Below, piece by piece: positions 5,780 through 38,341 of a DNA stretch of 38,909 nucleotides. The stretch lies in the NCBI GenBank assembly GCA_009602735.1, contig WELA01000485.1:154787-193695 (forward strand), read 5' to 3'. The stretch is from Mesotaenium endlicherianum. Its lineage: Eukaryota. The notes under the pieces are model-generated. The model saw only the letters and a program-made list of their open reading frames with translations. It did not search any database and was not told where the DNA came from. The stretch's first letter is position 1. Every line of letters starts with the position of its first letter. The position numbers were made by a program, and so were the translations under genes.

Positions 5780-7913
5780 GACTGCTGGTTTGGATCTGCT
5801 GGAAGGAATAAAGTGAAATGATAGTGAACAGTCCCCTAAAATTTCCCTCGAAGCTTCGTTCTGTAGTGATCTTCCCTATATGATCTGGAGAGGGAGATAC
5901 TGAGCGGGAGCAGAGACTGGACGGAGGGAAAAAGTTATGTTGTTCTACACGAGGGTCATCTGAGTCTCTTAGTCCCCTTCACGAGAGTCGTGTCCAAAAT
6001 GCGATTTGTTTCTCTACTGCAGCTTGAGTACACTTTCAAACTGCAAGCAAAGGCCCTGATAGAGGTAGTCGAGAAAAATATCCCTGTTTACGGCCTCCGT
6101 CGACGAGCTGTATGCCAGTTGATAAATGCCGTCTCGAGCTTATAGCTGATCTCACTTGTGGTTTCTAATAACTCCCCTGGTCTCAAACACCTGTTTGTAG
6201 GAACCGCCCATTCCCTTGCTTGGAAGTATCTCCCACGAGTCTGTTAGTCACTGTGAAGCTTCTGCTTACACCTGCTTGATTCACTCAAATCTAGATGTTT
6301 CCCACTTCATGTACGGCTGCTTCTTGTGCGATTGTAAGGAGGGACAATGCAGTCCCTCTCAAGACAGCAGGCTGTGTCTTTGAATCCACAATTGCCAGGA
6401 GGAAAAGAATCATACTGAGTATGTCTGGTAGGAAAAGAACAATCCCTGCTCTTTTGGCACATCATGCTGCTCTGCTGTCCTGAGAATCCACCTGTCCCTG
6501 AAGCAGTTACAGAGCGTGAAGCTACCAGGTAGTGGACTTGCAGGTCTAATTAAACTGATGTCCCCTTAGACCTGCATATGCAACAGATGCCTTATCAGGA
6601 AGCCACATTGTTGTGAAGTTCACTAGGTACACTGTAATATGGCAGAGGGAGTAATAGATCACAACTCCTTCATTATATAGCCTACCTTTTAGGCGTGAGC
6701 AGCATATTTTCATATCGTAGTACCAAGTTAGATGTAGGGCATTTCCAGCTTGAAACATGTGTCTCCAAGCATGCTTCCACTTCGTGCATCTTCTTTTTCA
6801 GCCAATGCTTCGGTCAGTGTATGGTAGAGTTTCTGGAAGAGATTAAGGAGGGATTGAATTCCGCACACGAAAGGTCTCTCTAACAGAACCCACAAAGAGG
6901 AGCGATGAATAAATTACCATAGACAGTTTATTTGCACATGCCTAGCCCCTAACCTCATCCGGTTCAGTTGCTTACATAAGCTTGAAGTAGTGCCTGAAGC
7001 CGTTTTCCTGAGACATTGATATTAAGAGACAAGGTGACGGGCCTTTTTCTTCTTTCAAATTCTGCTTGTGTCCTGAATTGGAGAGGTTTTTTCAACTGAG
7101 ATATCAAAATGTGCGTCCACAATCAGGAATAGAGGCACTGGGTAAGAAGACAGGAAATGAAAACGCGTCAATTATTATACCTTCGAAAGCATACGGCACC
7201 TTGATCATGTTAGCACGCTGATTCACTAACGTCGTCTCAATGATAGATCAACAAGTTTTTCTCCAAGTGTCGGCCTACACAGAAAAGAGAGAAGGATGTA
7301 CTTTTCATTATGGCAGTCAAACGTCCAAAGGGATGTGAGTCTTGCTAGTCATGACATTCCACTATTTCATTGCACTACATCGCTAGCCTGTGAATCATTC
7401 TCCGTGACCCTCAGCTTCAAGTCGAGGTTGTCTAGAATTTCAACTTTCAATTTGTACTTGTTGGAGGGTGTTGGAGAAAGGACTTCTGATGAACTCCGGT
7501 CCAGCTCCGACCAATGGACTCCGACCAATTCCTGTAATGGTACGTCTCGAGAGGCCGACAGCTTCAGCGCTCACATTGCGACACCTGGGTGTGCTTTGGC
7601 GCTCGGGCGTGCTCAGGGCAGCTTAGGATGACTCAGGTCGAATCAGGGCATGCTTGGGCTCACTTGGACTGGCTTAGGTTGGCTTGGGCTGGCTTGGGCG
7701 CCTGTCGGTGATGTTTGGTGGCGGTCGCGAACAAAGAGTGTTCTGTACATTTGGGTCCAGCTCTGGTCCAGCTGGGTCCAGCAGTGCCTTTGGATTTATC
7801 CATCGAGGTCAACCCCTTGGACTATGTACTATCGGCAACTCTCGGGCAATTTAGCACAGTTTAGCAGAAAGTAGTGCAATTTGGGGCCAAAGGGGGCAGT
7901 ACCTGACAGGTTA

Positions 7914-14600: not shown

Positions 14601-15633
14601 CGTGCGTGTGCTTGCGTGTGTGTGCCCCCCCGCATGTGCGTGCACACGCTTGTGTGCTTGTCTGACCTCACATGTGCGTGTGCACGTGCCCGTCCTTTTG
14701 CATTTCCATGAGCGCCTGCACGCAACAATCTCCTATTTCGTGATTGTTCTCGATTTTTGCCCCGCTTGGCAGATCCGCCGGCGGCTGGAGGAGAGCGAGG
14801 AGGGGTGCACCTTCTCCAACTGCTGCCACGTGGCGGAGCCCGGATGCGTCGTGGGCTCCGACTGGGACCGCTACCGACACTACGTGCTGCTGCTGGAGGA
14901 GCTCAGGCAGCGCGAGGACGCGGACCTTAAGGCCCTCGGGACGAAACGAGAGAGCGATGTCAGGTGAGGGGCTAGAGCCGAACCCCCGCCATGGCTGCCG
15001 CGGCTGCCCCGCTGCCATTCCGTCGCTGCCCTTGCCCTTGTGCGTTGCGTGCGTTTGTGTGCGAAATGAAAGTATCTGGTTTCTCCTCTTTGAATTGTGG
15101 CCCCCCTTTGGCATTGGGCGTGGCAATCGCGGAGCCTCTCCTCTTCCAAATTGCCTTTTTTGCGTTCTCATCTGAACACTAATTCTTTTGCTTTCGCTTA
15201 TTGGAGTCCAAGGCAAAGGTAGCCGCATGACAATTCTGGGAGCCTCGCCTCTCTGATTTTCATACAAACGTCTGTTTGCCTTATGTTGTTCTATGAAGTC
15301 ATTTTCTTCTCTTGGCTTTCCTCCTTCTTCCAGCCCCCAGTCCAAGGCGCCGGGAGTGACATTTGCAGGGCTTGTCTCCGCCCGGGCTCAAGAGTGTCTG
15401 TACGTCTTGTGTCGTCGCATGACATCCTTCTTCCTCTCTGCTTCTTCAGGTTCAAGACGAAGGCGTCGGGCGTGACGATTGCGGAGCCCCGCCTGGTGAT
15501 GAAAAAGCATCGGCGCGTCTCGAGGCGAAGTAGCCATCAGACGGTCGACGTCGACGAGGACGAGTTTTGGACCGGGAGGGAAGACGGTGCCGTCGCCGAG
15601 GTCGCCGAGGGCTTGATTAGCGGGGGCAGGTAG
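8661..15633 (+). CDS. rsgA: RsgA/YjeQ (EngC) small ribosomal subunit biogenesis GTPase, plant organellar type with a long N-terminal extension
   Basis: Exons 8661-10351 (spanning the N gap 9764-9895), 12454-13695, 14773-14963 and 15450-15633 (TAG), with GT-AG sites and consistent phases 0,0,2. Motifs: QAIGQVVVAQANFMRV and ELLCVVRALLKKMRRRVLVGDRV (OB region), DPPIANVDQ, G4 FNKADL, G1 GPSGAGKSS, G2 SGRGRHTT, G3 DSPGF, and zinc finger CTFSNCCHVAEPGC. The G4-G1-G2-G3 order is the circular permutation diagnostic of RsgA. Start codon 8661 is the first in-frame ATG and is less certain. Confidence 0.93.
10680..10797. repeat. Degenerate ~33-nt tandem repeat, 3-4 copies, in RsgA intron 1
   Basis: Units tgcggggtttattggccagagagacgagaggca / tgtagggtttatgggccagagacacgggaagca / tgcggggctcgtgggtcagtgcaaagggagcca / tgtggggttcaggg. 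Confidence 0.7.
14446..14690. repeat. (GT/GC)n mixed dinucleotide microsatellite in an RsgA intron
   Basis: Long gtgcgtgtgt run. Similar CA/GT/GC tracts occur at 12140-12230, 24085-24380, 26010-26070 and 28800-28920. Confidence 0.85.
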
Positions 15634-16879
15634 CAACATCGTCTGCATATCCCATCAGTGGAGTTCGTGCACTAGTATAGACATTTTTTTTCTCAATAAA
15701 GTTTGACCTGAAATGTAAATAGTGTGCTGCTTTGCTGCCCGAAACTTTTCGTGGTGCCCGAGATAAAATGTTTGCCTATCGGTTCTATGGTACACATCTC
15801 AAACTCTGCACCACTCTTGATGTTTGGGCAAGTAGTAAGAAACATGGACCCTTTGCACTCCAAGAGAGTACACTCATGCAAACCCTCAGCCTCTCGGATG
15901 CATGACTGTGTGTCAATTGATTAAGTAGACCGCTTCACTTCTTCTTTCTGTTGTCACTTTGACCATTAAGGTCAGCACATGTTGTTTCTCACGGTCGGGC
16001 CTCACACAAGTGATAAGTGGCCTCACTAGTCTCTGCAACATGCGAGTTCCCCCCCGGATGGGCACCACATATACTTTGTTTGGTAGAAATGAGGTTCAGA
16101 ATAGTTAATTCACCGCATATAATTAAACCTAAAGACTAAGAGACAAATGAAGAGCATTTTGCTACACTATAAAGCAAAACTTTTGAATTGTCCTGAATCA
16201 GTGAACACAAAACTAAGTTGTTTCGCCCAGCTGCCAGCTGGCTGCCATCAAACCAGTGCAGACATTCAACAACAAATTCTCAATTCAGCGAAGGAACTCG
16301 AGGCTTGCCCAGTACATATTGATTAGGGCATAAGTGGGCAGCATGGTCCAAATCTGCCTCAGCTGCCAAAACAACCATTGGCAAAGATGCGCTAGTCGAT
16401 TGTTGACAAGTCACTTGGAGACCTCAAAAGTAACCTCATATTAAGATATGTATGACAGTTAACACGGATGTAGCATGTGAGTCATGCTCAAATCTTCACC
16501 CTAACCTGTCTGGCTATGTCAAAAGATCGATGTCAATTTTGGAATGCGCTTTTGTCGGGCAGGGCATATCACCACTAGAAACCTCCGAGGGATGGTCGAC
16601 TTCCAAATATGCACGTACACTAATCCTAATGGGGGCCTAGGGTACTCATGGTTAAAATGTAATGCTCTTGTGCTGATGCTAAGCCAGACCGCAAGTTTGA
16701 GAAACAACAATCAAATAATAAATCGTGGGCGTTACCAAAAATGAAGATTAGGAACTGCTAACCTCAAAAAATCTAAGGCGGGCCTTGCGAGCAAAAGTTG
16801 CACATACTAAGTAGCAACACTCCCACTGCCACACCAGGACGTCTAATCTCGGCTTCTCATCACAGACGAATGCGATGCA

Positions 16880-19800
16880 TCACGGTAAACATACGATCTG
16901 GTTGACAAACAAGGACCCCGTGCTACAGCTCAGGGCTCTATTGAATATCTTGAATAGCAGAGCACTCCGTTTGAACTTGTTGTAGATGAGGGACGCGCAC
17001 GTGTCTCCGCGCCGCAGCTTGTATGCTTTCTTACACTGGGGGCCGCCGCTCAATGCGCCTCCAAGGACGCACACCTGCCGTGAGCACAATCAAATCGTGA
17101 TAAGGGTTACAACCAGTTACGGCACTGTAATGCGCATGCGACCTCAACCCGCGCGCTCAATGGTCGGAATAACACGTGCTTGACCCAAAACGGCAACGAG
17201 TCGCGGCAGCATTTGTCCACTGATGCTGACGTTGCTGTTGACGATGACGTGCATGCATGCTTCAACACGCATTGCGCTGGCAGAGGACCGTATCCCTGAG
17301 AGACGATTAGAATACTCTCGTGTCAATTGCGACGGGGGCTCACGCCTCCTCAAATCACACTCGCAACCAGCCACCTTGGAATCTCAAAAGACACATGCAC
17401 TCATCCGCACCTGTTGGCCCGGGAGGGAGGAGGCTCGGCCAGGGAGAAGATTCCCGCAGTAGAGGCCCGGGTTGATTTTGAGAAATTGCAGAGGCTCCAG
17501 CTTATATCTGGCCCAAATCTTTGCGCACGTGTCTCGAGGCTCCACGGGCGCCCACTGCCTGCATACTAGGCTGCTTGGAAAGTCCCCCTCCGAATATTCG
17601 ACGCAGATCTGCATGAAGTGCGCAGCGGGACAGTGCAGGCACTCCCGCGAGCAGCAAGCAAAGCAAAGAGTCCCGAAAGTGAGAACCTCCGACACTCGTA
17701 ACTGGCTCCTTAGCGAATCTCGAGTTCCGTCAAGTGCCTCGTGAGCTCTGTTAAAATGGGCATTGCTCTTTGGCAGTGGACGCTACGGCGACATAGAAGA
17801 GGAAAGAAGAAAAAGAAGAAGAGGAAGAAGAAGAAGGAGAAGAAAGAAAAGGAGAAGGGGAAGAAGAAGAAGAAGACAAAGTCAAGATGAACAGGGACTA
17901 ACGAACAGGGAACATCTCCGCTCACACATCACTTGGCAACCAGAGCTCAGAGTGAGTAGGCGCCTGCAAAGCGGGTGCGAGTGCTGCAAGAGGAAAGAGT
18001 GGAGGACCTGGAGGCACGTTGGAATGAAACTGTAACCCGGGCAATTCCTGGCACACATCTCGAAGGTGAACCCTGACCCTTAACCCTAATTGTAAACCCT
18101 GACTCTACACCTTACTCTTAAGTCGCAACCCTGAAGCCACCACTGTCTTAACCCAGATCCCTAACTCTAAGCCCAAACCCTGACCGCTGCACCCCCAAAC
18201 AGTCGAGAAGAGGCGGAGCAGACACGCAGGGCAGCTGCGCAACGCTAGACTTACTCAACTCTGTAGAATTTCGGACTTCTTATTTAGGGTTCGGGAACGA
18301 GGCTTGTCGGGCTCCTTTGAAAGCGCACAGCTCCGGCGGGGCACCAAGCCGCGGCGTCGACCCGACCGTGTGCGCCCACGTGAAGGACTCCTCGCGCAGC
18401 CGTCGCGCCCGCTCTCGGGATTGAGCGCCGACAGCTCGAGAGAGCAGAAGAGAGACAGAGACGCAGAGGGAAGCCTCGGGGCGCCAGGACCCTTGCTGCA
18501 TCCCTCGCGGTATGCCTCGCGGCACCGGGCTCACGCGCAAAGGTTTAGGTGCAAGGTTCAAGAGTAGAATCGGGTTTTCTGATAAGGGTTGGGGTTACAT
18601 TTTCGATTTAAAATTTTATTACGGTACTGCCGCCCTTGCCGGTTCCCGGGACAATTGCAGCGGGCAGAGAGGGGGGCGGCTGGAGTGCTGCGCACCTGCT
18701 GGCCCGGGAGGAGCCGCGAGCAGTTGAGGCCGGGGTTGATGCCCTCCAGGTCCTTCTTCAGCTGCAGAGCCGCCTTCACAGACGCGCACGTGTCCCCCTG
18801 CTTTACTCCCCCCCCCACCCCCCCACCNNNNNNNNNNNNNNNNNNNNNNNNNNNNNNNNNNNNNNNNNNNNNNNNNNNNNNNNNNNNNNNNNNNNNNNNN
18901 NNNNNNNNNNNNNNNNNNNNNNNNNNNNNNNNNNNNNNNNNNNNNNNNNNNNNNNNNNNNACACACCCGGAGCCAGAAGAGCTTAATCAAGCAGCGTCTC
19001 GCGTCTCGAGCGATGCATGGTGACTGTGGAGCAGCATCTGCCGAAGATGCGGGAGACAATTTGGGCTCTAGGGTTTAGGGTTCGAGGTTTCGGGTTCAGT
19101 TGAGCAAGTTGACAGTGCAAAGGCATGAGGTTGGACTGCAAAGTGCAGAGAGAGAGAGCTAGCTCGCAGCGATGTGGCCGGGCTTGCGAGGGGTTGTCGG
19201 AACGTTTTACACGCGATGCGCGCCAGTGCACGCACCTGCTTGAGGCCCAGAGGCCCAAAAGGCGATGTTTGATTAAACACCAACTTTGAGAATCTTAGGG
19301 GCACGCACGCACGCACGCATCTCCAGCCCCATAGGCCACGCGCGTGCGGCGCAGTGGGCTTTCCAACTCACACACACGAGGAGGCCGAAAGGCACAGGAG
19401 CAACATTTGGCGAGATGTGCACACGTCTGCGCGTCTATACGTCTGACATGTCTGCGAGTGGTGAGTACGACTCAGGAGCGCCGCAAGCAGAGCCCCCCCA
19501 TCCACGCAGCAGCTCTCTCCACCCCCCAAAACACTTTTTCTGAGCTGACTTCCGCCTCAGAAGGGAAGCTCGGGTTTCAAGCTCGTGCTTCCCTCCTTAA
19601 CACGCACCTGGTTGATAGCGTACAGCGTCAGGCAGCCGGGGTTGAGCTTCACAGGCGTCACGTCCAGGCTGGTGTTCGCCCGAAGCGCGTCGCATTTGAG
19701 GCCCTGCGCAGCAGCAGCAGCAGGCCCGCACACGCGGTTGATGCTTGCGCCGCGCGTCGCGTGCGTCGCACGCTTGACGCCGACACAGTCGTACAAAAAG

Positions 19801-20463
19801 TGCGGATTGAATCAGACGCTACATGCGACGCACCATGCGACGCAAGCTGCAGCTCGAATCAGATTACGTGTTAACAGCCGTCGCTTGACTCATTGCACAC
19901 ACGTGGCAGAATTCCCAGCACCCATGGAGTTGAATCCTGAATATTGGATGCTCCCTTAGGTTCTGGATGCATATTCGCGCCCGCATGTGTGCGCGCATTG
20001 AGGAGTGTGCGTGAATACTTGTGCCCTATCATCATCGTGCAACTAGCATACGTACTGCTTGGATGCGTGACAGGCGTGTGCCGCACACACGCTAACCACA
20101 CCTGCTGCGTGCACGACTCGGTCAGCTTGCACCCCCCAGACGCCTGTAGGCCAAAGGCAACGAATCAGGGGGGGAACACAAAGAGAGAGATAGACTTTGA
20201 AGAAATCGAGAGAGGAACCGTACTCTGTTCCTGGCGAGCAACTGCGCGAGCGCGAGGCCGAAGGCGTTGCATGAGGGGAGCTTGAAGGAAGAAGTAGAAT
20301 AAATTCAAAGAAGTCAAGGGAAGCCGTACTTTGTTCCTGGCGAGCAGCTGTGCGAGCGTGAGGCGGAACGTCGTGTGGATGAGGTAGCACGAGTCGCGGG
20401 GCTGCACCGCGTACTTCAGAGTCCTGTAGCTGTGGTCCTTGTTGTAGTTGTCTTCCTCCGCGA
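16880..20463 (-). CDS. Four tandem Cys-containing LysM domains at the C-terminus
   Basis: LysM1 YAVQPRDSCYLIHTTFRLTLAQLLARNK|GLKCDALRANTSLDV; LysM2 CLTLYAINQ|GDTCASVKAALQLKKDLEGINPGLNCSRLLPGQQ|ICV; LysM3 CRQWAPVEPRDTCAKIWARYKLEPLQFLKINPGLYCGNLLPG...GQQ|VCV; LysM4 CKKAYKLRRGDTCASLIYNKF...FNRALSCSTGSLFVNQIVCLP-stop. All internal introns are phase 0. Confidence 0.9.
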
Positions 20464-21232
20464 CTGCGCACGCGCGTTTGCGATGCGCCATCAGGATTCA
20501 GTACAGGAGGAGGTGAAGAAAGGACAGCTGTCAGCACGCGCTCCTCGTGTCCTCATTGGGAGACGCTCCACACACGGTGTCGAGCGCGTGCAATCTTCTT
20601 CTTCCTCCGAAGCAGCAAATCCACCGGCCGCGCATTGTGTGTAGACTGAAGGCCTCACCACATATGGTAGTAGTATTGACGTTAAATAATATTACTCTTA
20701 TAAGCAGAGTAAGATCCTCTGTATACAGACTCATAGCCAGGCCATGCATCATGCAAAGCGGGAACAGTCATTTACAACCTCACACCTCGTGCCACAGCTG
20801 GCTCTTGCAGTCGCATCGCGCTCAACAACATCCGCCAAGCATGGAGCCTCAGCGAAGTAAGGCAGGCTGTGAGTTCTTGTGGAAAGATAGCACCCTTACC
20901 GGGCCCTCGACAGGCCTGCCTGCCTGGATCTGACGGTCAGCAGAGCTCTGAACCCTGAAGAGCATTAAAGGTGCATGCACTTGACGGTGGTGTGGGGGAA
21001 GAGGAGGACGGGAGAGGAATCACGAACCCGGGGTGCACGTGGGAAAGGAGTCGAGTTGGAAGCCCGCGGTGAAGCCAAGAGGGCAGATGCACGTGTACGA
21101 CCCCTTCTTGTCGTTCACGCACGTGCCGAAGCCGCAGGGGTTGGACATGAAGAAGGTGCACGGGTCCGCTGCCAAGGGGAGAGAATGTACGCTCAAACAA
21201 CGGAGACACACACGCATACAAACGCGCGCACA

Positions 21233-21288
<56 letters not shown>

Positions 21289-22848
21289 NNNNNNNNNNNN
21301 NNNNNNNNNNNNNNNNNNNNNNNNNNNNNNNNNNNNNNNNNNNNNNNNNNNNNNNNNNNNNNNNNNNNNNNNNNNNNNNNNNNNNNNNNNNNNNNNNNNN
21401 NNNNNNNNNNNNNNNNNNNNNNNNNNNNNNNNNNNNNNNNNNNNNNNNNNNNNNNNNNNNNNNNNNNNNNNNNNNNNNNNNNNNNNNNNNNNNNNNNNNN
21501 NNNNNNNNNNNNNNNNNNNNNNNNNNNNNNNNNNNNNNNNNNNNNNNNNNNNNNNNNNNNNNNNNNNNNNNNNNNNNNNNNNNNNNNNNNNNNNNNNNNN
21601 NNNNNNNNNNNNNNNNNNNNNNNNNNNNNNNNNNNNNNNNNNNNNNNNNNNNNNNNNNNNNNNNNNNNNNNNNNNNNNNNNNNNNNNNNNNNNNNNNNNN
21701 NNNNNNNNNNNNNNNNNNNNNNNNNNNNNNNNNNNNNNNNNNNNNNNNNNNNNNNNNNNNNNNNNNNNNNNNNNNNNNNNNNNNNNNNNNNNNNNNNNNN
21801 NNNNNNNNNNNNNNNNNNNNNNNNNNGGGGGGGACTGTTCAGTGTCTAGATGTTTGTGGCGCATCAGGTGCAAATGAGTCATGCAGATTACTCTAGGGAG
21901 CGGCAATCAGCAGCGCATGTGAACAATTCTAGCAGTTAAGACTGGCGAAGTTCGCCTTTGGGAGTCCTTGAAGCCCTCCTCCCCTCACGCTAGCTTGTAG
22001 CAGCAAAGCAGAAGTGCTCCAAAATTTTGTCAAGCCCATGTATCTCAAAAGTGCACCAAAGCACTCCACAGCTCCAGCAGGTTGGAAAGAGGCTGAGATG
22101 TCGGGACTTGGAGACTTTGAGACTTGGAACAGAACGGCACCAGAGGGCTGACTTGCTGGAGGGGCCGTCGAAGCGCCTGTCGACCTACTGCACTCGGGTC
22201 TCAGAACAAAGAGAGGGTGGAACGCCCCAACTTCAAGAAGCAAGAAGGGCAATGCATTGCACGGCACACGCTCTGCGTGCACGCAGCTTGCCAAGGACAA
22301 CCAGAAGATCATCCTCATTGGGTTGATGTGGGTCACAAGAAACACCCCAAACGGGGAGGCCTGTCGAGGCATCCAATCTTCCTCGCTCAAAGTCTGCTGA
22401 AATTTCAATCGAGAAAAGTTCCGCACGTCAGCCACTGTCCATAGGTCCCAAGGGTCACGCCCTCGGAAGCGTGCAATGCAGCAGCAGCCAGGAGGAACTG
22501 GCGTGCTCTTCTTGTCTCCGCAAGGACAAGCTCCGCCTACCCCTAACCCTAGCCCTAATCCTAATTTTAACCCTAGGCCTAACCGTAACCCTAGCCCTAA
22601 CCCTAAATCCTAACCCCGAGGGGAACCCGAGCAGCTTAGGGGCCTCACCGGGAGCGCAGGTCTGGGAGGCGTCCGAGTTTGCGACGGGCGTGAAGTGGGG
22701 GGGGCACTCGCACGTGGTGGCGTTGCCCTTCTGAACGCACCTCCCGCCTCCACAGGCGCTCGATGCCTTCCCTCCGCACAGATCCTTCCCTGCAGAACAG
22801 CGCACGCGCGTGCGCACCCCCAAGGGGTTGGGGGGGGGGGGGGGGGGN

Positions 22849-22884
<36 letters not shown>

Positions 22885-25800
22885 GAGTGAGGAGGGCAAT
22901 GGGTGCAAGGGAAAAGAGGAGAAAGAGAGACGGAAGTTCAAAACGTCAGCGGGCGTGCACCAACACCCACGCTTGCCTGTACATACACAGGCAAACGTTG
23001 CATGACATGTGTCGTCTGGACACATGTGCGTACAGCGAATGCCACTTGTGCTGCTTGTACGCTCCCCTTAACCTCAAGGCACCGGGCACCGGGCGGCGGT
23101 TGCCACTCACCCTTTGCAATGGGGTACATGCCAGGTGTCGACGTGACGCCGCAGACGCCGTCCCCGCCGGCGATGGCCAGGTACATGTACCCGCCGTCGC
23201 CCCACCCGCGGCCCCACGAGTTGCGGATGATGAGGTGGGGAGTCTTGGCCGTGAGGTTGTAACCCACCAGCAGCACCGCGTGGTCCACCAGCGCGTTGCT
23301 GAAGCAGGCCGGGTCGTCGTAGACTCCCTGTAGGTGTCGGACACGCACGCAGGCAGAAAGGCACGCACGCTCAAAGGCATGCACGCACGCACGCACGCAC
23401 GCTCGCAGGCAGGCAGGCGCGCAGGCAAGCACGCACGCAGACACGCACGCAGGCAGGCAGGCACTGTCAGGCTCTTCTCTCTCTCCCTGCCCCCTCGACC
23501 CCCCGCCCCTCACCCCCGCCACCCCTGGAAATCTCCCGGCCAAGCTGCCCTCTCAGACTTACTTCTGTCTGTCTGTCAGGGCGCGTGAGGGAAAGGACGC
23601 AGGGAGATAATTGTTGAACAAGCGGGAGGAGGAGCCCCCGGGCCCTGGCCTCTCCGAGGCCTATTTCCTTGGCAAGAAATGAAGGCTCCCAACATCCTTG
23701 GCCTGAAGTTAGGGTGCACGGCACCCACAACCTCCTAGCCCTAAGATTTAGAGCCCCCATGATCCTAGGCCTAAGAACACAGCTGAGGAATTCCAACCTC
23801 CTGGGCCTAGGGTTTAAGCCTTCCAATTTCTGAAGAATTCCGCCAATAGACTCCCGGCCTCCTAGGTCACGGGGTTAAGCGCTTAAGGTGTTAGGGTTTT
23901 GAGGGTGTCGGGCGCCCAACCTTGCCGGAGTAATTGATGAAGGAGTCCTGGTCCGCCTCGAGGCTGACCACCACGGGCTGGCGCTGCACGGCCAGCAGGA
24001 GGCCCAGCACCCCGAGGAAGTCCACCTGCTCCCACGCGGCCACCCCCAGCTGGCCCTGCTGCGCCTGCACTCGTGGTGCGTGCACGCATACATGCCACCA
24101 TCGAGACGTGCACATGTGCACACGCACACACGCACGCACACGCACAGGCACAGGCACAGGGGTGGGAGTTGGTGGTGTTCAGGCACGCGGTATTTCGTAC
24201 GACAGTTTGGGTGCCTGCGGTGATTGGACGCAGACGCGCATTCAAAAGTTCCCACGCACGTGCACACACACACACGCGCGCGCACGTGCACGTGCACGCA
24301 CAGACGTGCAAGGGAGCATATGGACACGTGCAAGAGCATGCGCATACCGACAAAGGCACTCGTGCGCGCGTTAACGCACACGAACACGATTTGGAAGTGC
24401 TGCTATAGCTACAGCACCTTCTTCGCGTCGCACCCTGTCGCGCTCTTTGCGCCTCTGTAGGGGTAGCCTGCCTCGGGGGCGAGGCCGCCGTAGCGAGCGG
24501 TGTTCCCCGCCGCATACTCCAGCGCGTCGCCGGGCCAGCCGCCGGCGCACGAGCTGCTGCCGCGCTGGCAGTCGATGACCTGCTGCTCGCTGGCCGCCAC
24601 CTGGCGCGAGAGGAGGATCGCGCTGGCGGCTTCGATGGCGCCCACGGCTGCAAACGCCCAGCAGGCCTCTGCGCAGCCGGAGCGGGGGGGTGCTACAAGT
24701 CAAGGTCAGGTTTCAGGGTTTTAGGGTCATGGGGTTCCAAAGATCGTGCCTACTGGCGTTGCAAAGTTTCGACCTCATAAGAACCGCGGGCGTCTGAGTG
24801 CGCGTGCGACCAAAACCAGCAGCCACTGCAGCAGCCGGGTCCTAGGGTTTAGGGTTCAAAACGGTAGCTCCGGGGTTTAATAGGCTGAGGGGGTTTCCAT
24901 GCTCCAAGGCCAAAGCGCAGATCAACTTGCAATATCGCACTCAGGAGGAAAGATAAGCACACGCCCGAGAGCCTCAACAGGCGGGTGACAAAAGCACCTC
25001 GCGGGCAGTGTCAAAGGGGAAACCCTTTTTTCAAGTGACAGCATCCTGCGTGCTACCTGTGGCACGCACGCGGATGAGGGCGCATGGGCATACATGCAGC
25101 CGAACGCCAAAGGTGAATGCACAAACCATAACACAGCATACGAAAGCCGGGCACAAAGTCACGCGTGCACGCCTCCCGCCACGCCTCGCCAGACAATGAC
25201 AAGAGCGTGCGTATAGCCCTAAGCCCTCGCCACAGCTGACCACGCACGAGCACGCTTGCCCGCACGCACGCACACACGAGCCCCCTTACCGCAGTGGCCC
25301 TGGTCCTTCACGCCCGCCAGCACGCGCTTCTGCCGCCAGTCCACGGCCGGCGGGAGGTGCCAGCTGGCGGCGCCGCCGTCGCCAGAGAAGCCATAGCTGG
25401 CGTGGCGGAAGTGCTTGCTCAGATGCTTGGGAGGGGCTCCCAGGGAGGGCGGCACGAGGCCCCTCGTGCGGACGGGAGCAGGTGGGGGGGAGGGGGGGGG
25501 GTGGCACTCTAAACTCATAGTAGCAGGAACACAGTGATGAAAGTGAGGCNNNNNNNNNNNNNNNNNNNNNNNNNNNNNNNNNNNNNNNNNNNNNNNNNNN
25601 NNNNNNNNNNNNNNNNNNNNNNNNNNNNNNNNNNNNNNNNNNNNNNNNNNNNNNNNNNNNNNNNNNNNNNNNNNNNNNNNNNNNNNNNNNNNNNNNNNNN
25701 NNNNNNNNNNNNNNNNNNNNNNNNNNNNNNNNNNNNNNNNNNNNNNNNNNNTCGGGGGAGGGGGGCTCCTCCGCGCAGCAGGAGGAGGAGGGGGGGGCGA

Positions 25801-28800
25801 CTTTTTGCGCGGCGGAGGGGTGCTCTTCTTTGGCGGCGGTGGGGGGGAAAGAGAACCTGCATGATGGAGAAGAAAGCATGGCGTGGGAACGGGCTCGGAT
25901 AATGGGCAGGAGCAGCGGGAGGAGCACAAGTAGGTGGGGATGGTGCCACGGATTCGCGTTCGGATGTAGCATCACGAGTGTGAGGTCCATGCGTGATCAA
26001 TTGGTCGCTTGCGTGCGTGTGCATTTGCATGCGTGTGCATGCGTGTGCGTGCGTGTGCGTGTGTGTATGTGTCAAATTCTTCACATGCAATTTGCCCGGC
26101 ACTGCTGCAGTCAGATACGGCTCCACTTTGACAACCAAGTTTTCCGCATTTCCTCGAGTTGATACACAGTGCACACGCATCAGGTCAAGCTAACCACGCC
26201 AGAGGCGCCCCCTCAGCCAGCCCATTTGCGGCGCGGGATGCAAGAGGGGCAAACTCGTTGCTTTCATGTCGTGCGCCATCGCTTGCATACAACGTCTTCG
26301 TCAGTTCAGGCGTATAACCCACAACTGATCCCACTTCAATGTCTTCATCACTTTAGGCGTATAGCCCACACGGAGAGTGTGCATCACAAAAGTGAAGGGC
26401 AAGGTGGTGCGTTTGGGGAGCACGTACAGCTGGCAACCCCCGCCACCTGTCCCCCCCGGTACCCCGGCTGGCAGACGCACGTGGGCCGGGCGGCGGCGCT
26501 CAGGATGCAGCGCCCGTGGCCCCCGCAGGGGCCCGCTGCTGAGGTGGCGCCGCAGAAGGCGGCGCACTCCTCTGCACTGCGCTGCTCCTGGGCGCACTTG
26601 GAGAGGAAGCAGTTGCCGGAAGAATCCGCCGGACAGCTGGCGCCCGTCAAGTAGTTCCCCGACAGGTGCCTAGACAGACGTGCGTGCGTGCGTGCGTGCA
26701 TGCGCGTGCGCTCTCGCGCGCGCGAGAGAGACAGAGCCACACGGAGAAGTCAGGGGGGGCGCCACAGACTCTAGAGGGGCCGGGCCTAGAGGGGACGGAG
26801 GGGCCAGCCAGGGCCCAGTGGCAGGCAGCACTTCTCACCGCCAGGACATGCGAGCGCACACGTGTGTATCCATGGGAGGGTTTAGAGCGCCAAGTTAGGA
26901 TTGAGGATTCGGGGGTCTCTGGTGGTTGGAATTTGGCAGGGGAATGACACAAGAGGGCCCACTCAGAGCGTGTTGCAAGTGGCAGCATACGCCCCCCACA
27001 GGCCTAGCAGTTGACACCTGTTGGGGGGAGAGACTGTTGGAGGTTTTCAAGGCCAGGAAGCAAATTATTAACAACTTAAAAGCTCAACAATGCAAGGGGG
27101 GCGATGGAAAGGGCATATCATCAAGCGTCTTCCGGAAAAAACCCACAGTAGAGCGCAAGCTGCGAGTGACACGTGGCATAGCTGCCAACGGGCAGGAGCT
27201 CCCTTGTATCCGTATGCAGCAGCAAGTGCGACTTCAGAGTGAGAAGCCCAGGAGGGAGTGAGAAGCCCAGTGGGAAGGAAGACGGTTGTGGGTGAGGCCC
27301 AGGTTGTTTCACAGCCATCTGAGCAGGACGTTCTCGCAAGGCTGCTCGCCCCTGTCCAGTGAGCGAGCCGTGCATGGGGGGGGGGGGGGGNNNNNNNNNN
27401 NNNNNNNGGGGGGGGGGGGGGGGGGGGTGAGAGAGAGAGAGAGGGAAAGAGAGAGAAAGACGAGAGCGGGCAGGCATCAAGGGGGTCTAGTAGAGTCTCA
27501 AGAACGACCACACAAGCATGCTCCCACCCACGCACAACAGCGAGCCAACGAGCGAGCGGGCGGGCGAGCGAGGGAGCTTTCACACGCAAGAGCTTGCAGA
27601 CAACGGGGGAAAGAGTCTCACAGGTTCTCGAGCTCGGGGAGGGCCAGCAGGCAGGCGGGGACGCCCCCGGAGAGCTGATTGCCGCCCAGGTCTCTGGTCC
27701 CCCCAAGCAAGTGGTCCCCCGGGCAAAGCAGCGGACGGCCCGTAAGGAAGCCGGCCAACGTGGACACCTGGCGCAAGGGTCCAGTTTGTGCCCTAGTTTA
27801 GCAGACGTAGCCTCGTAGACTGGACAGCAGGCCGTTCCAGCTACGCTGTGAGGATTTTGACCCTGGCGTTCTGACGGCGGAAGCAAGCTGCATGCGGACC
27901 AGACAGCTGGCAGAACCCGAGAGGACGCTGACAATCTGAACATCAATCTGCTAGCCCCGAACAAACCCAGAGTGCCTGCTAGCAAGCCGTTCAAACCTAG
28001 AAAGGAGGAGCAGACACCAGGGCGTCAACTCAGATGCGCAACATACTCTCCCCTATGCGCAAAGCCGACCATGACACGACCACGACCCTGACCCGAACCT
28101 GACCGCAACCCGACCCTGACCCGACCCTGACCCAAGCCTGACACTCACAAGGATTTAAGCTGCTTTGTGCTGCAGAGTTGCTGTGGGATGCCTCCGCTGA
28201 AGCGGTTGGAGCTCAGCTGCCTGCACACCCCCCCTCCCCAACACTCAGCCCATAAAAGGAGTAATGGGAGCGCAAAGCCTTCTGAGGGGAGGGAGGGTCC
28301 GAGGGTGCAGGCGGCGGGGGTGCGTGGGTTCTGGTGGGCGGGAGGAGGAGGCTCGAGGAAGACCGGGGCAGCTTTCCCCCACACACACGCACGCCACACG
28401 GGATGCATCGGAAAACCACAGCCTAGGCGGCTCCCCCTCCTCCTCCTCCTCCTCATCCTCCCTCCTCCCTCCTCCTCCTCCCCCTCCTGCCCCTGCTCCT
28501 CCTCCAGATGTTCAGCGACGGCTCTGGCAGCAATCTCTTGTGGAAAATGCGAGCGCCAGAGGCCTCTTTGGCTCAACCTTTTGACCCCCTCGCAAGCCAG
28601 GGGAGATCGGCTCCCGCGACACTTGCCGTCTCCGAGCCGCCCGTGATGCGCAAGAGATCTGACGGCATACGTACGATGTTTTTGTGCGAATACGTCGAGT
28701 ACCGTGCAAAAGACATGCAAGAAAAGAAAAGAGGGGGAAGAAAGGTCGCGACAGACCGGTTCTACATCCACACATCCGCGCGCACTCACACGCAGCATAG

Positions 28801-30915
28801 ACTATGCGTGCATACATGCACACGCACATAGACACACGCGCACACACAGACACATGCACACACACCCACACACACACACACACGCACGCACGCGCACACA
28901 CACACACATACACACAGAAACACATAGGCGAGAGGCCTACCCGGCACAAAAGGGATGAGTGCAAAATGCAATGGACCATCAGCACAAGCGGTACGGCCGA
29001 AGTTGCCAAGCGAGACTGTCCGTTCTTCCAAAGAAAGAGGAAGTCAGGTTGCAGACAAAGACGTTTACTGAAGCCCACACCCGAGACCCCAGAGCCTGGA
29101 TCAACCACAGCAGACTGCGCGCCTCAACGGCAGAGAGCGGCCGCAGACTGCACGTGCGAGAAGGGAGCCCAGAAGTAAGCAAGCACACAAGAGAGTGCAG
29201 CAGCTGCCAGCGATCGTGAGCCGCCATGCGCTTGCGTGTGAGTCAAATCAGGTCCGAGAGGCACGTGGGCTGGAAAGGCATGCATGCACACTCGGGTCAG
29301 AAAAGGCAGAGATGGCGTGCGCGCGCGCGCGCGTGCAGCGTGTGAGAGTCCGCCGTGTGCGGCGTGTGAGGGGCAGGGGCTGAGTGGGTATGCTTACACT
29401 TGGATCAGTAAAGGCACGCTCCCCAGGCAGCTGGGGATGGTTCCCGAGAGGTCATTCCGCGAGAGGTCCCTGTTGCAGCAGCGAGAGAGGGGCGCGAGAG
29501 GGAGGAGGAGAAGAACTCTCTGAAGGTCTCCTAGGTAGGAACTTGGCCGCCAGAATCAAAATCTCGGGCATTCTTTCATTCGCGTATTCATGTGTGCATT
29601 TGTGCATGTATATGCACACAGACGTATGTGTGATGAATAATCATGAGCGCAAATAAATTATATACGTGCATATGGACATCCATCTGAATATATTTGTGTA
29701 CATGCAGATCTAATCTTCACGATGGAGAGAAAAAAACAGGATCTCCCGGGAGAGTGTGTGGCACAGTAACGATCAAGTGAGGAGGGCAAATGGAAAACTC
29801 TCAGGTTTTGAAAAGCGCGGGAGGACCACCAATCAAGGGCACTTTGAATTGACAAATTGCAGTCAAGCGTTTGAGTGACTATCGATAGGCCAGGAGGGCC
29901 AGAACCCAGGTTGGGGGGGGGAAGGGCTCACAGCCATCATAGCTCTGTCACAAGACGCACAAGGAGTGTCCAAGCGAGGGAGGGCAAGGGGTTAAAGGCC
30001 TGCAAGTTCTAGCATGTGATGGATGGGACACTTGGGAGTCGGGAGACCAGACAGGCTTCAGTTATGGTCGCACGGCGCACAAGCTCACAGGGGGCGACAG
30101 CTCCTGCAAGTGGCACAGGAGAAGCTACCTGCCAGGCGAGGGTTGGCGTGTGAGGCGGAGGGGTGTGAGCACGAGCTGACGATGCAATTTTTTTGGGGGG
30201 GGGGGGGTGTGGGGGGGGGAGAGAGAGTGTTGGGCTACGGCAGCCGGGCCCTCACAGGTAGGAAAAAAAATCCGTCAAGCGGCACAGGTCCTCCGGCAGC
30301 GGGCCGCTGAAGAAGTTGTCGTTGAGAAGCCTGCGGGAAGACATCCATGGCGGCAAGGCGCCACACATCGGTCAGCGATAGGGTCCAGGTGGGGAGCAGG
30401 CCGCAAGCAAGCGCCGCCCGTCGGGGCCCACAAACCCTAAAATCTAAAGGGCTGGACGCTGGTACCCTAGCTTGTCCCCAGAGAGGCTGTGGAAGTAGTC
30501 GAGCGCAAGGCGCTGTTGCATCTGACACTTCATCTGACACGTCAGCAACGCCAGGCGTAAGCATCTGAGAGGGGATGCGAGGGAGTCAAAATCGGAAGTA
30601 GGACGTCCGGGAGCGTGCAGGCAGATGAGTGCGAGAGCCTCGGGAGAATTCGGACAAATCTAAGCACACAAAGAGAGAGAGCAAGAGAGAGAGAGAGAGA
30701 GATAGAGGGGACGAGAGAAAGAGGGGGAGAGCGAGGAACGCGCACAAGCACAGATTGGATCTGGGAGGCGTGGACTGAGGGACAGCTGTCGCGAGGGGCG
30801 CGGGTTGAGTGGGTGCTCACAGAATTGCCAGTTGCGACAGGCTCCCCAGGCAGCCGGGGATGACTCCCGAGAGGCCGTTCTGCGAAGCCTCTCTGCCCAG
30901 GCCCAGGGCAAGCAG

Positions 30916-30968
<53 letters not shown>

Positions 30969-32043
30969 CTTGAACTAAAAGGAGCAGCTCCTTGGAACTG
31001 GAGCAGCTAATGGCTTGGAGAAGCCGGCACATCGGCAGGTACCATGTCGTCACACACTGCAAGCAAAAGGAAGTGCTTACTGCACATCTCAACAACCATG
31101 CCAGTGTTTAGGTCACTCGGGCCTCCTCCTGTTCAGCAGACAGTACAAATATATGTGTGCCTTTTCATGTCACAAGGTTCTTCTCTATGCCACATGTGTG
31201 TGTGTATCTGCATGCATATATCTTTGCGTGTGCTGCATGTAGTTTGGACACAAGTACACGCGTGTGCGCAAGGAATAAGCAGGGTACGAGGCAAGCTTGC
31301 TCTTCCAGCCACAGCATCCTTCTCGAAAGGTGCACTAGCACATCAGAAGTTACACTACGACCACGAGCAGCAGCAGTGCTTCTCACGACGTGCCGCACTT
31401 CAGCGCAATCGTCTGCCCTCTGAAAGCTTCTCCGTCCCAGATGGGCTCGCCCCAGCAACAGAAGACCTCCAACAGAAGAAACCGCACGAGTTACCACCAG
31501 AATGAGCTACCCTGGCCCTCAGAGAACATCATGGCAACGTGACAGAGAGACAGGTGCTTTCCAGCAGGAGCAGCTGTAATGTCGGGCAGCTAGCTCCAGC
31601 CACACAGAACATGAGGCGACAGGGCACTGACTTGGTTTCAGAGGAGGGGAGAGAGGGGCCAGCTGGCGGTGAAGAACACCTTGGGAGAGGGAGTGGAGCT
31701 GAGGGCGCTATGCAAAGGAAGGAGGGGCTCACCTGCTGCCCCGGTTGTAACTGCTGGCAGTTGAGGCCGGGATTCAGCTCCAAGAGCTCCACATTGTCAA
31801 ACACCCCGGCGATTGACCGACACGTGTCGCCCTGCAAGCAACGCACACCACCCGCGATTTCGTAGGGCAAAGTCACACCCGGAGGGAGAAGGCACAGCCG
31901 CGGCCGCATAGCTTAGACGCGCCCATCACCAAATTGGCTCCGGACGGTACTTTCTGGAAGACCACATGCAGCTCGCCAGTGCGGGCTCATGCCTCTACGG
32001 ATTGCGAGCGCGCGTGCACATGCACACGCGCCCACGCGCGTGT

Positions 32044-32075
<32 letters not shown>

Positions 32076-35000
32076 ACCTCGTGGCACTGCATCTAGCTTG
32101 CCATGGAGCCTTGCTCTCTAAGTTTCATGATTCAAAGGCCAGGGTAGTGCTGAGCTCACAGGCGCAACGGAGTAGGTGACGCCGCAGCCCTCACTGTTGT
32201 TCCTGTAGACCACCGCCAGGACGACTCCTGGCGTCGGATGGGGCGTGCACCTCAGGTTCTGTCACAGAAGAATGGGAGAGCATGAAGCTGACTGAAACCA
32301 GCTGTCCTTGTGCCTACGAGAGGAAGAGGCAAGCCTGCGCAATTGATAGCTTCTAGATCNGTCGTAGAGCTCCTGCAGCCGGCACAGCTCCTCCGGCAGC
32401 GGGCCGCTGAAGTAGTTGCCGCTCAAGTACCTGCGCTCCTCCCACGCCACCACGGCGACATCAAGCGCAGGCGAAACTCGTCGCAACGAGCCCCGCAACC
32501 CTGAACCTTGAACCCTAACCCCAACCCTAAATCCTGGACAGAATTCACCCCAAATCCTAAAATGTGAACCCTAAGCAATGCAGAGCCTCAACCTCACATG
32601 TCGCACGCTGGCGAGCCGGCAGCGACAGGCCAGAGCAGGGGGGGCTGGCATGCGTGATGTGGAGCGGTAGGGGGGGTGACACAGTCAGGTGTCTTCAAAG
32701 GGGCATGGGGGGGGGCTGCGCGAAAGGGCTTACTTACAGTCTCATCAGAGAAGACATGTTCCCCAGGCACCCGGGGATGGCTCCCAAGAGGCCGTTCTGC
32801 GAGAGGTCTCTGCCACAGCAAGCCGCGAGAGAGGCAGAGGTGTGGGCACACATAGGAACAACAGCAGCAGCAGGCGGCAGCAGCAGCGGCAGGTGACAGT
32901 AGCAGCAGCAGCAGCGGCGGCAGCAGCAGGCGACAGCAGCGGCAAAAGAATGAAAACAGCGTAGATTAGGTGTCAGGCCCCCTCTGCTGCTCTCGACTGG
33001 AGAGAGTCGCAGGCTTGACGGGGCAGGCAGCTGCTCGCCTCCGGAGGCAAACGCCGACAGCAGCGAGAGGCTAGAGCTCGTCTGAAGAGAATGCGGGTTT
33101 GCGCTCCAGCAGAGGCAGTGGCAGCAGCAGGAGCAGGAGGAGCAACAGCAGCCACGGTCCTCCCGAATCCTCCGATTTTGCTTTCGCCTTCTCGCAAACA
33201 GGTCCTGCTTGGAGTTTGAGTTTACGACTGCCTCGCACAAGAGAGACTCAGGTCCTGAAGGCACGCGCTGTTGAGGACGCCTCTGAGGTGCCTTCCTGCG
33301 GCGCAACTCGACCGGCCCAGGCCTCTGAACGAGTGAACCGAGGGTGTAATGTTTGACTCTTGAGTGACCGACAGTCGGGGGCAGGTCGGGGGCAGGTCGG
33401 GGGCAGGTTGGGGGGCAAATCGAGGGCAGGTCGAGAGCAGGTCGGGGGCAGGTGGGCGGGGGCAGGTGTCGGAGCAAGGCAGGGCACGCTCATTGGCACG
33501 GCATCCATGGCAGCTGCAGCAAGCGGCGGCGGCACTCCTCTCTCCACAAGGCGGACCTTGACAACGCTCTACAAGGTTAGGATGGGTGAGGCGTTCAAGC
33601 CCGGCGGTTTGAGAGTAAACGTTTGAGCATGAAGGATGCAAGGAGACGAGGAGGGGCTGAGGGTAATGGCAGCGTGTGCACTCACAAGTTAACAAGCCCC
33701 CGCGAGCGGCACAGGCCCTCCGGCAGCGGGCCCCGGAACTTGTTGCTGGCCAGATACCTGCGCGGAAGCAGAAGCAGAGTCTCGCCGTTGACAGGCGGGA
33801 ACAAGCTCGGCAACAATCAGCCCGCCACACCAAGCGGGCCGCAAGCCGAAGCTCTCCACCCAAACCCTCCACCGTAAATCCTCACCGTAAACGGAAAACC
33901 CTAATTTGGAAGCTACGTGTGCCCCGGCTTGACTTGCCAGCTGTCCCGGAAGACGCTCCCGGGTCACTCTGACAGCGACGGCACAGCACACAGCAACTGG
34001 ACAGCCGGCCCACGCACGCCCGCTTGGCATTGTCCTTTCATTTCCAGTTTCAGTTTCAGTCACAATAATGCAACAGTCTCCCACCCTCCTGTAATCCATG
34101 CGCAGGCACCCGATGCACAAACAAATTTTATGGTTGCAATTACGGTTGCAGCGCCTAGTTTACTAGCAGGAGGCAATGCAAAGGAGAGGAGGAAGGGGGG
34201 TGGGAGTAGATGGTGAGGGTGGGGGGAGGGGGAGGGAGTAGAGGGAGAGGAGCAGAGGGAGGCGGACAATGGGAGAGGAGAGGAGAAGACGGCTTCCCCC
34301 AGGAGCAGAGATATGGAGGCTGGAAAAGCGAGCTCTGCATGTTTGCTCATGGCACGCAAACACCTGGGGGGGGTGCTCTTTGAAGGGCGGCAGGGAGCGC
34401 GAGAGGCAACAAACGAGGAGAGGGCGGGGGGGAAAGGGTAGGAAATGAGGGAGGGGAGAGGACGGGGGGAGAGGCGAGGGGGGTGGAGAAGTGGGAGGGG
34501 GAGGGGGGCCCAGTCCTGAGAGACACCAGAGGAGGCACAGAGCGTTCGAGCGGGCCCGCACTTACAAGTGAACGCACGGTGGGAATACAATAATGACTGC
34601 GACGAGCATACAGGTGGACAGGTCGGGTGCGACGGCATCGCGTCGAAGAGACAGAACGAGGGGGTAGCACGAACGCATGCCAGCGGGCGCAGGCGTGTGA
34701 CTATCTGTTCCGAAGACGGGGTCACCTCGCAACCCTGAGACCTCTGCCAGAATGCCAAGCCTAGACCCCTAAACCTCTATCCCCCCCCCCCCCTNCTTGG
34801 CATTGTCCTTTCATTTCCAGTTTCAGTTTCAGTCACAATAATGCAACAGTCTCCCACCCTCCTGTAATCCATGCGCAGGCACCCGATGCACAAACAAATT
34901 TTATGGTTGCAATTACGGTTGCAGCGCCTAGTTTACTAGCAGGAGGCAATGCAAAGGAGAGGAGGAAGGGGGGTGGGAGTAGATGGTGAGGGTGGGGGGA

Positions 35001-36574
35001 GGGGGAGGGAGTAGAGGGAGAGGAGCAGAGGGAGGCGGACAATGGGAGAGGAGAGGAGAAGACGGCTTCCCCCAGGAGCAGAGATATGGAGGCTGGAAAA
35101 GCGAGCTCTGCATGTTTGCTCATGGCACGCAAACACCTGGGGGGGGTGCTCTTTGAAGGGCGGCAGGGAGCGCGAGAGGCAACAAACGAGGAGAGGGCGG
35201 GGGGGAAAGGGTAGGAAATGAGGGAGGGGAGAGGACGGGGGGAGAGGCGAGGGGGGTGGAGAAGTGGGAGGGGGAGGGGGGCCCAGTCCTGAGAGACACC
35301 AGAGGAGGCACAGAGCGTTCGAGCGGGCCCGCACTTACAAGTGAACGCACGGTGGGAATACAATAATGACTGCGACGAGCATACAGGTGGACAGGTCGGG
35401 TGCGACGGCATCGCGTCGAAGAGACAGAACGAGGGGGTAGCACGAACGCATGCCAGCGGGCGCAGGCGTGTGACTATCTGTTCCGAAGACGGGGTCACCT
35501 CGCAACCCTGAGACCTCTGCCAGAATGCCAAGCCTAGACCCCTAAACCTCTATCCCCCCCCCCCCCTTCCCCCCCTTAAAGGCAAAGGGGCAGCGGGCAG
35601 CACAGCTCAAGAGGAGAGCAGCGCCAGGGAGTGCCACGCACTGCTTGCGCAGGAAGAGAGCATAGACAGAAGAGCATTCTTCTTAAGCCCCAGTCCCAAA
35701 CCCCTGCTTCATCGCCAGCATTGACCTCAAAAATAGGCGAGCGGCGTCGCGGACTGCACGTGCGGAAAGAGGACGTAGAAGACGAGGAGGCAGGCCAGGG
35801 GGGAGAGCAGAGCAGAGAGCAGAGAGTCTCAGACGCTTGCAAGCGCGAGCTGGCGCGCGCACAGCGTGCGGCTCGTAGTCAAATTGTGCGAGGATGCGGG
35901 GGCTGTGAAGATTTGGATGGAGATGCGTACAAGCCTGCGAGGGAGGGCACGCTCCCGAGGCAGCCGGGGATGAATCCCGAGAGGCCGTTCCGCGCGACGT
36001 GTCTGCCGGAGCAGCAAGCGCGCGAGAGGGAGAGAGAGGAGAGTGAGGGGGAAGAGAGAGAGAGAGAGCAAGGGAGAGGGAGAGAGAGAGCGAGACACAC
36101 ACACACACAAGAAGTGATGCATCGGCGGCAGGAAAGCACACAGCAAGAGCTGGAGAGACGAGACGAAGAACTCTGCAAGGCCCTCAGAATCCACTGCAAT
36201 GGAAGCCCCAAACAAGGCTCCTCGAGTTTTGCCGGGGGATGCGCCTGCGGACGCGTCAGGGCCCTCAGGCAGCAAAACTCAACCCAGCCGGTTTTAGGGT
36301 TTGCCTATTGGGGCTCACTTACGAGAGGCTAGAAGTTGGGGGTGGGGCGGCTGTCAATGGGCAAGCGGGGGTCAGGGGCAGGACCCAAGGACGGGAGAGG
36401 GCGACGCGCTCACAGGCATGCCAACGTTCACGAGCCAACAAAATCTGCCACTCGCTGTTTGAGGGTCAGGGTACAGGTTCAAGCGCGCACTCACACATAC
36501 ACACACACACACACACAGCTATATTTATACATATGTACTACTCATATTAACAATTCTTTTAAAATATACAGAGA

Positions 36575-36643
<69 letters not shown>

Positions 36644-36644
36644 N

Positions 36645-36688
<44 letters not shown>

Positions 36689-38341: not shown

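Follow-up and report, generated by a model that had tools for sequence, protein, structure and literature searches.

Organization of the locus

The window, i.e., the whole 38,909-nt stretch of Mesotaenium endlicherianum DNA that was analysed, contains on its minus strand a gene of 25 exons that runs from position 38341 to a stop codon at 16880 and combines LRRs, a Cys cap with an EGF domain, a Ser-Pro linker, a C1A (papain-like) protease, two EGF domains and four LysM domains, in this order. Twelve exons of 72 or 75 nt carry one LRR each, another carries LRR13 together with the Cys cap and EGF, and one carries the linker; the remainder are four protease, two EGF and five LysM exons. The visible coding length is 3050 nt (about 1016 codons), the 5' end being missing. 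The features of the locus are as follows.

38270..38341, minus: LRR1 exon (72 nt, phase 2; gene model)
37493..37564, minus: LRR2 exon (gene model)
36749..36820, minus: LRR3 exon (gene model)
35931..36002, minus: LRR4 exon (gene model; contig letters link it to LRR5)
33686..33757, minus: LRR5 exon (gene model; RNA joint 32809/33686)
32738..32809, minus: LRR6 exon (gene model and RNA)
32361..32430, minus: LRR7 exon (the N at 32360 takes away its donor and final two bases; all four runs show RNA joint 30892/32361, with two intervening letters)
31733..32258, minus: two intronic LysM-type exons (32258-32160 and 31831-31733), skipped by the mRNA and identical in protein to P0009
30821..30892, minus: LRR8 exon (gene model and RNA)
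30256..30330, minus: LRR9 exon (75 nt; gene model and RNA)
29398..29469, minus: LRR10 exon (gene model and RNA)
28149..28220, minus: LRR11 exon (gene model and RNA)
27622..27693, minus: LRR12 exon (gene model; junctions not among the RNA joints listed)
26428..26669, minus: LRR13, Cys cap and EGF1 (Pfam EGF 1.6e-05; RNA joint 25854/26426)
25752..25856, minus: basic Ser-Pro linker exon, entering the gap (sequence and RNA)
25550..25751, no strand: assembly gap of 202 N at the linker/protease boundary (sequence)
25290..25508, minus: linker end, short pro-segment and start of the mature protease with Gln19 and Cys22 (acceptor position inferred)
24418..24668, minus: C1A exon with Glu23, Cys25, Trp26 and Gly65 (100% match to P0001; Pfam C1 1.4e-16)
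23921..24064, minus: C1A exon, first 13 codons omitted in the annotated model (RNA joints 24063/24417 and 23326/23920)
23111..23327, minus: C1A exon with His159, Asn175 and Trp177 (Pfam C1 2.8e-14; RNA joint 22788/23110)
22649..22789, minus: EGF2 exon (Pfam EGF 2.4e-04; RNA joint 21168/22649 across the gap 21289-21826)
21028..21168, minus: EGF3 exon (Pfam EGF 3.4e-07; RNA joint 20463/21028)
20330..20463, minus: LysM1, first part (gene model and RNA)
19608..19703, minus: LysM1 end and LysM2 start (gene model and RNA)
18696..18797, minus: LysM2 body (gene model and RNA)
17411..17608, minus: LysM3 (Pfam LysM 1.2e-06; RNA)
16880..17074, minus: LysM4 and stop codon (gene model and RNA)

After boundary correction, AG acceptors are present at all 25 exons; of the 24 internal exons, 22 have GT donors and two have lost theirs at Ns. 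Exon phases are compatible throughout, and the single stop is the last codon. A strict LRR-exon pattern (72 or 75 nt) applied to positions 26001-38909 retrieved 11 exons on the minus strand, none on the plus strand and none in each of 100 shuffles, which rules out chance exons. Exon by exon, Pfam recognized two C1A exons, three EGF exons and, of the five in the LysM region, a single LysM exon; the remaining four there, like the individual LRR exons, are too short or too divergent to score by themselves. The exon count, domain order, catalytic residues and terminal stop given by an earlier, sequence-only reading of this DNA are reproduced in the present model together with phases and splice sites, and its minimum of 12 LRRs becomes 13, counting the repeat in the cap-EGF exon. 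A tblastn search with five paralogue N-termini found no N-terminal cap or signal exon in 38342-38909; the start codon and signal peptide are absent from the window, and the 5' end of the gene lies further upstream.

Throughout 27622-38341, the LRR exons are of two alternating sequence types, the even-numbered ones often following CT tracts, which suggests that the array grew by a two-exon unit. The LRR4-LRR5 intron contains a near-perfect tandem duplication (34009-35567; 780 of 786 bases, offset 773) around the lone N at 34795; overlap at scaffolding is the probable cause. Within the intron downstream of the first LysM1 exon, positions 20211-20262 are an 85% copy of the end of that exon and its donor, 106 nt away. 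The window further encompasses an OSCA/CSC1-type channel gene (1-5780, minus strand; RSN1_TM and RSN1_7TM matches) and, at about 8740-15650 on the plus strand, an RsgA GTPase gene that carries a long low-complexity insertion and is convergent with the protease gene; neither neighbor shows a sign of a functional link to it.

Transcription and continuity of the gene

The RNA evidence comprises one contig set and three raw-read runs, from three studies, aligned to positions 16700-33900 at 90% likeness. Among the joints listed, at least 14 of the 24 predicted junctions were seen as RNA joints, each in all four runs: LRR5-6, LRR7-8, LRR8-9, LRR10-11, EGF1-linker and all nine between the second protease exon and LysM4. 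The LRR4-5 junction follows from contig letters beyond LRR5 that match the end of LRR4, and letters of the same kind indicate LRR1-2; as an RNA joint, the first protease junction appeared in a paralogue-like form only. Seven junctions are not among the joints listed, two of them outside 16700-33900. Paralogue reads also aligned at the locus, yet the contig pieces that cover LysM2-4 and two of the protease exons are free of mismatches, and in two of the three raw-read runs first mates fall mostly on the plus strand, as fits minus-strand RNA. Transcription of the gene is seen in all three studies, contrary to the complete lack of expression that the sequence-only reading had named as its refutation.

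That reading had also pointed to three gaps at which separate genes might abut. RNA joints bridge two of them, at 32360 and 21289-21826, in all four runs; at the third, 25550-25751, the linker-to-protease junction was not seen in the four runs. In single models, this boundary is bridged by seven Mesotaenium paralogues (P0003-P0006, P0008, P0011 and P0012), which run from the cap and EGF through linker and pro-segment into C1A, and the whole domain order recurs in P0011, P0012 and Closterium models. Complete Trinity transcript ORFs, P0022 (1178 aa) and P0077 (901 aa), likewise have the whole order from a hydrophobic N-terminus to the LysMs.

The public annotation of this locus, P0001, is a 324-aa protein that starts just past the gap and consists of the protease piece alone; one of its protease exons is 100% identical to the window. 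It lacks 13 codons present in the RNA and continues into an intron that is spliced out there. Two genes, an LRR-EGF-proline gene ending in the gap and a protease-EGF-LysM gene beginning there, would accommodate both the unseen junction and the separate annotation of P0001, but we consider such a split highly improbable, given that P0001 has no hydrophobic N-terminus, that its model is contradicted by the RNA on both these points, and that the seven paralogue models together with P0022 and P0077 span the boundary in one chain. The gene is expressed and spliced, and most likely it encodes one protein with an LRR arm, a papain protease and four LysMs; the single polypeptide proposed from the sequence alone is well supported by RNA joints, paralogues and complete transcript ORFs. 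P0180 (ME000156S01489), which in Mesotaenium is closely paralogous to the LysM2-4 part, is annotated as a protein of its own with 177 aa, and split annotation seems common in the algal C1A-LysM family.

The two LysM-type exons in the LRR7-LRR8 intron had been overlooked in the sequence-only reading and are spliced out in the RNA. They begin beside a one-N contig join and are exact protein substrings of the paralogue P0009 (ME000065S09004), and reads link them to the preceding exon of P0009, which lies outside the window. A LysM "island" within the LRR array is rejected on these grounds, the mRNA joining LRR7 directly to LRR8. The exons are likely to reflect a misjoin at the CT tract before LRR8; a recent copy is the less favored explanation.

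The protease domain and its pro-segment

By residues, Pfam match and predicted fold, the central domain is a C1A papain-like protease, and activity is predicted. The C1A catalytic set is present (Gln19, Cys25, His159, Asn175 and Trp177; pattern Q C E C W G G H N W in P0001), PF00112 scores 158.7 bits against a cut-off of 20.7, and the protease model matches papain folds over about 200 residues with Z of 26.5-28.7 and rmsd of about 2. These three properties are shared with papain, RD21 and Rcr3, from which the protein differs in its LRR-EGF arm, its EGF-EGF-LysM4 tail, Glu23 and the lack of a visible I29 prodomain. The RD21-type C-terminal granulin is absent, the protease being followed by EGF-EGF-LysM4 with RNA joints to the stop.

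All four residues that the sequence-only reading had called intact (Gln, Cys, His and Asn) are indeed present, but it missed that papain position 23, Gly in papain, is Glu in the window copy, in both the assembly and the annotated model. Few papain-like enzymes have a residue other than Gly at this position, and in glycyl endopeptidase (papaya proteinase IV, 1GEC) Glu23 and Arg65 together restrict P1 to Gly (PMC4220004, PMC13737867). The window copy shares Glu23 with that enzyme but has Gly65 in place of Arg65, i.e., only half of the block, so that the same specificity is not to be assumed. By analogy, Glu23 would partly narrow specificity in favor of small P1 residues; it may also leave little activity.

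The state of the prodomain had likewise been passed over. No I29 prodomain was found in the visible sequence, which has the 202-N gap upstream of the protease, or in the paralogues with continuous models; there is only a short pro-segment. About 40 residues before the mature N-terminus are near-identical among close paralogues, and a search for the pro-segment motif located it in 63 of 123 family proteins. The window protease model aligns with proenzymes over a longer range than with mature enzymes (about 200 residues from residue 55), and procathepsin X (1DEU) superposes over 231 residues (rmsd 2.5, Z 27.4, model range 16-268), although confidence in the pro-segment of the model is modest (pLDDT blocks of 68, 68, 48 and 72) and the model may echo learned proenzyme folds. 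A complex prediction for the P0003 pro-segment and mature protease, run without an alignment, scored 0.01, a value that speaks neither for nor against inhibition. Procathepsin X also has a short pro-segment, but there a pro-segment Cys is linked to the active-site Cys, whereas residues 16-54 of P0001 contain no Cys, and at 24% identity there is no sign of orthology. Taken with the conservation of the segment, the model suggests a minimal inhibitory pro-segment, i.e., zymogen control. A papain with predicted control by about 40 residues and a natural Glu23 is of enzymological interest.

Binding modules, linker and secretion

The full-length model of the paralogue P0012 (pLDDT 81.9, pTM 0.51) has an LRR solenoid, a papain domain, EGFs and four LysM folds of the beta-alpha-alpha-beta type; at this pTM, no confident packing between domains, including LRR and protease, was found. 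The LRR arm matches the folds of the plant receptor ectodomains ERL1, GSO1, MIK2 and FLS2, and, as in these receptors and in LRX proteins, its 24-residue extracellular LRRs are encoded on single phase-2 exons. Plant LRR receptors have a transmembrane helix, with or without a kinase, whereas the chain here ends in LysM4 with neither seen. In agreement with the sequence-only reading on this point, hydropathy indicated no membrane helix (the highest internal 19-residue values, 1.35-1.84 in 14 of 14 proteins examined, all lie within folded domains), and none of 117 family matches has a kinase Pfam domain. A receptor kinase or receptor-like protein is rejected for lack of a membrane anchor. In each of the 11 relatives examined whose N-terminus is complete, that end includes a hydrophobic stretch (hydropathy 1.46-2.73), and from these relatives the protein is predicted to be secreted.

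The linker is basic and internal, with 34 visible residues, three Ser-Pro runs and no Tyr; the gap may hide more of it. To call it an extensin, as was done from the sequence alone, overstates a short segment without Tyr. LRX proteins have a long C-terminal extensin with Tyr cross-link motifs, and the shortness of the linker excludes LRX identity.

The LysM3 exon scores 28.7 bits against a Pfam cut-off of 20.9. Among solved structures, the LysMs come closest, at weak E values of 0.005-0.02, to the Cys-containing ones of chitinase A from fern and horsetail (4PXV, 5BUM), which carry an enzyme to chitin; the fern LysMs are disulphide-stabilised and bind chito-oligomers (PMC4392113). The protein analysed here shares this Cys-bridged type but couples it to a protease, and the Tyr that follows Asp-Thr/Ile-Cys in 4PXV and 5BUM is present in LysM1 only, the family varying at this site; in its absence from LysM2-4, affinity for chitin may be weak. 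The Cys-bridged LysMs are predicted to bind GlcNAc polymers.

Gating of the protease by the LRRs, suggested in the sequence-only reading, is unsupported because many relatives have lectin or hevein modules in place of the LRR arm. The arm would rather be a second binding surface, for a target, a wall or a partner, and the short pro-segment is the better candidate for control.

A lectin-tailed papain family of Zygnematophyceae

A search with the paralogue P0004, in which the best ~8000 candidates were scored and domains taken from precomputed Pfam, returned 117 matches, of which 19 combine LRR, C1A and LysM and 57 a legume-lectin domain with C1A. By the same precomputed domains, I29 occurs in none of the 116 algal or unnamed matches and is present in the one fish match only. 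Named sources are Mesotaenium, Closterium strains and transcriptomes and, from 30 look-ups, Netrium and Spirogloea; those with names are Zygnematophyceae, the green algae most closely related to land plants. In the family layout, the C1A-EGF-EGF-LysM4 core stays constant and the N-terminal module is exchangeable, being LRR-EGF, legume lectin or hevein, in each case a recognition or glycan-binding type. For example, the Netrium protein P0161 has hevein repeats where the LRRs stand. Besides hevein repeats, P0161 and P0087 have an N-terminal region that looks prodomain-like by eye and has no Pfam I29 match; these two proteins possibly represent an ancestral form. No land-plant protein with the core occurs among the named matches (best ~8000 candidates scored per search). 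The expanded family joins three module types that land plants use separately in immunity, a combination absent from land plants among these named matches.

A residue census covered 226 C1A domains, near-duplicates from related strains and isoforms included; 165 were assigned to the family by EGF/LysM motifs, and 135 of these have Cys22 and Trp26 aligned. Position 23 in the 135 is Gly (51), Ser (26), Ala (26), Lys (12), Glu (10) or another residue (10), compared with Gly in 45 of 57 domains of the remaining class, which includes some family fragments. Cys25 is replaced by Ser in 32 of the 135, so that about a quarter of the family domains lack the catalytic Cys, while His159 and Asn175 are retained in 161 and 163, respectively, of the 165. 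These dead copies had escaped the sequence-only reading, although the window copy itself keeps Cys25.

A quick tree built from 61 protease domains places the window copy within a Mesotaenium group of 11 rows (SH-aLRT 98), itself nested in an algal group of 32 rows (SH-aLRT 97). Some C1A-EGF-LysM proteins lie beyond this larger group, so the tree does not show that the whole set arose once. Leptophrys vorax is an amoeba that feeds on algae; P0015, filed under its name, nests among Closterium proteins and is probably RNA of algal prey.

The sequence-only reading knew of no characterised protein with this architecture. Models with the full order already exist in databases as hypothetical proteins of Closterium and Mesotaenium, and C1A with LysM is on record for Chlamydomonas, whereas no description of the LRR-C1A-LysM architecture or family was found in the full-text literature (mostly papers free of subscription, and genome papers apart from their supplements). 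The Chlamydomonas proteins consist of papain and 2-3 LysMs in five architectures (Supplementary Table 3 of the source), and such fusions have been reported lost from vascular plants (PMC6362431). Compared by architecture, none of these five has LRRs or the C1A-EGF-EGF-LysM4 order; the survey covered no Zygnematophyceae. The accessible part of a study of papain family origins (PMC10380794) mentions neither LysM, LRR and EGF nor Zygnematophyceae, and that of PMC11289646 does not mention proteases. The present set is best described as a lectin-tailed modular papain family of Zygnematophyceae, lectin-protease fusions as such having precedent.

Proposed function and alternatives

With middling confidence, we propose that the protein is a secreted papain protease aimed through its LysMs at microbial walls, acting in defence under the control of its pro-segment. 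It would be secreted as a zymogen held inactive by the short pro-segment and become active once the segment is shed or displaced. The four-LysM tail would tether the enzyme to microbial surfaces bearing chitin or peptidoglycan, i.e., GlcNAc polymers, where the protease would cut a narrow set of proteins, and the LRR arm would add a further, exchangeable binding surface. Defence is favored by the nature of the swapped N-terminal modules, the expansion of the family, the variable S1 site and the dead copies. Variation at position 23 and the Cys25Ser replacement fit pressure from inhibitors or varied targets; they may also reflect relaxed selection after duplication. Among C1A enzymes, RD21 and Rcr3 have immune roles. 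A candidate opponent is the parasite Ancylistes, the wall of which contains chitin. It attacks Closterium and Netrium (bioRxiv 2023.12.22.573025).

A role in the alga's own wall or mucilage is unlikely but is the alternative that survives best. The LRR-proline arm would serve as an anchor, as in LRX proteins, and the protease would trim matrix glycoproteins in growth, separation or conjugation. Expression in all three RNA studies, the basic Ser-Pro linker and the missing Tyr of LysM2-4 are compatible with this, as is the secretome of Penium, which contains cysteine proteases as well as LRX-like proteins (PMC6027541). Conversely, the hevein and lectin swaps and the chitinase-like LysMs point to foreign glycans, and so many dead copies and a variable S1 site would not be expected of a housekeeping enzyme. 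Should matrix turnover prove the only role, this would still be an undescribed and mis-annotated family of algal proteases.

Rather improbable is an integrated decoy, in which the protease would be bait for parasite inhibitors, the LysMs would hold this bait on the invader and the LRR arm would signal occupancy of the bait to a separate membrane receptor. In the Cf-2 and Rcr3 pair, a receptor guards a protease bait in this manner; here the two roles would be joined in one chain. Such a trap would account for domains that have lost the catalytic Cys yet keep His159 and Asn175, for the high variability of position 23, and for an LRR arm that folds like plant receptor ectodomains. It is at odds with the lack of a membrane anchor, kinase or known partner, with the absence of confident LRR-protease packing in P0012 and with the retention of Cys25 in the window copy. 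The variable active site, dead copies and swapped modules allow both defence and decoy to be tested in culturable algae with known parasites.

Finally, the enzyme might bind bacterial or fungal debris in mucilage and free peptides as a nitrogen source, or otherwise keep microbes in check, a very unlikely use that shares all its anatomy with defence but leaves the dead copies and the narrowed S1 site unexplained. In the secreted C1A proteases of Aphanomyces (C1A-CBM1, C1A-CAP and C1A-ML), fusion to carbohydrate modules serves substrate adhesion (PMC10084794). As in the family described here, duplicated C1A domains are there combined with swappable binding modules on a low-complexity linker (PMC10084794), although the modules are different, the proteases are on the side of the pathogen and an independent origin is presumed.
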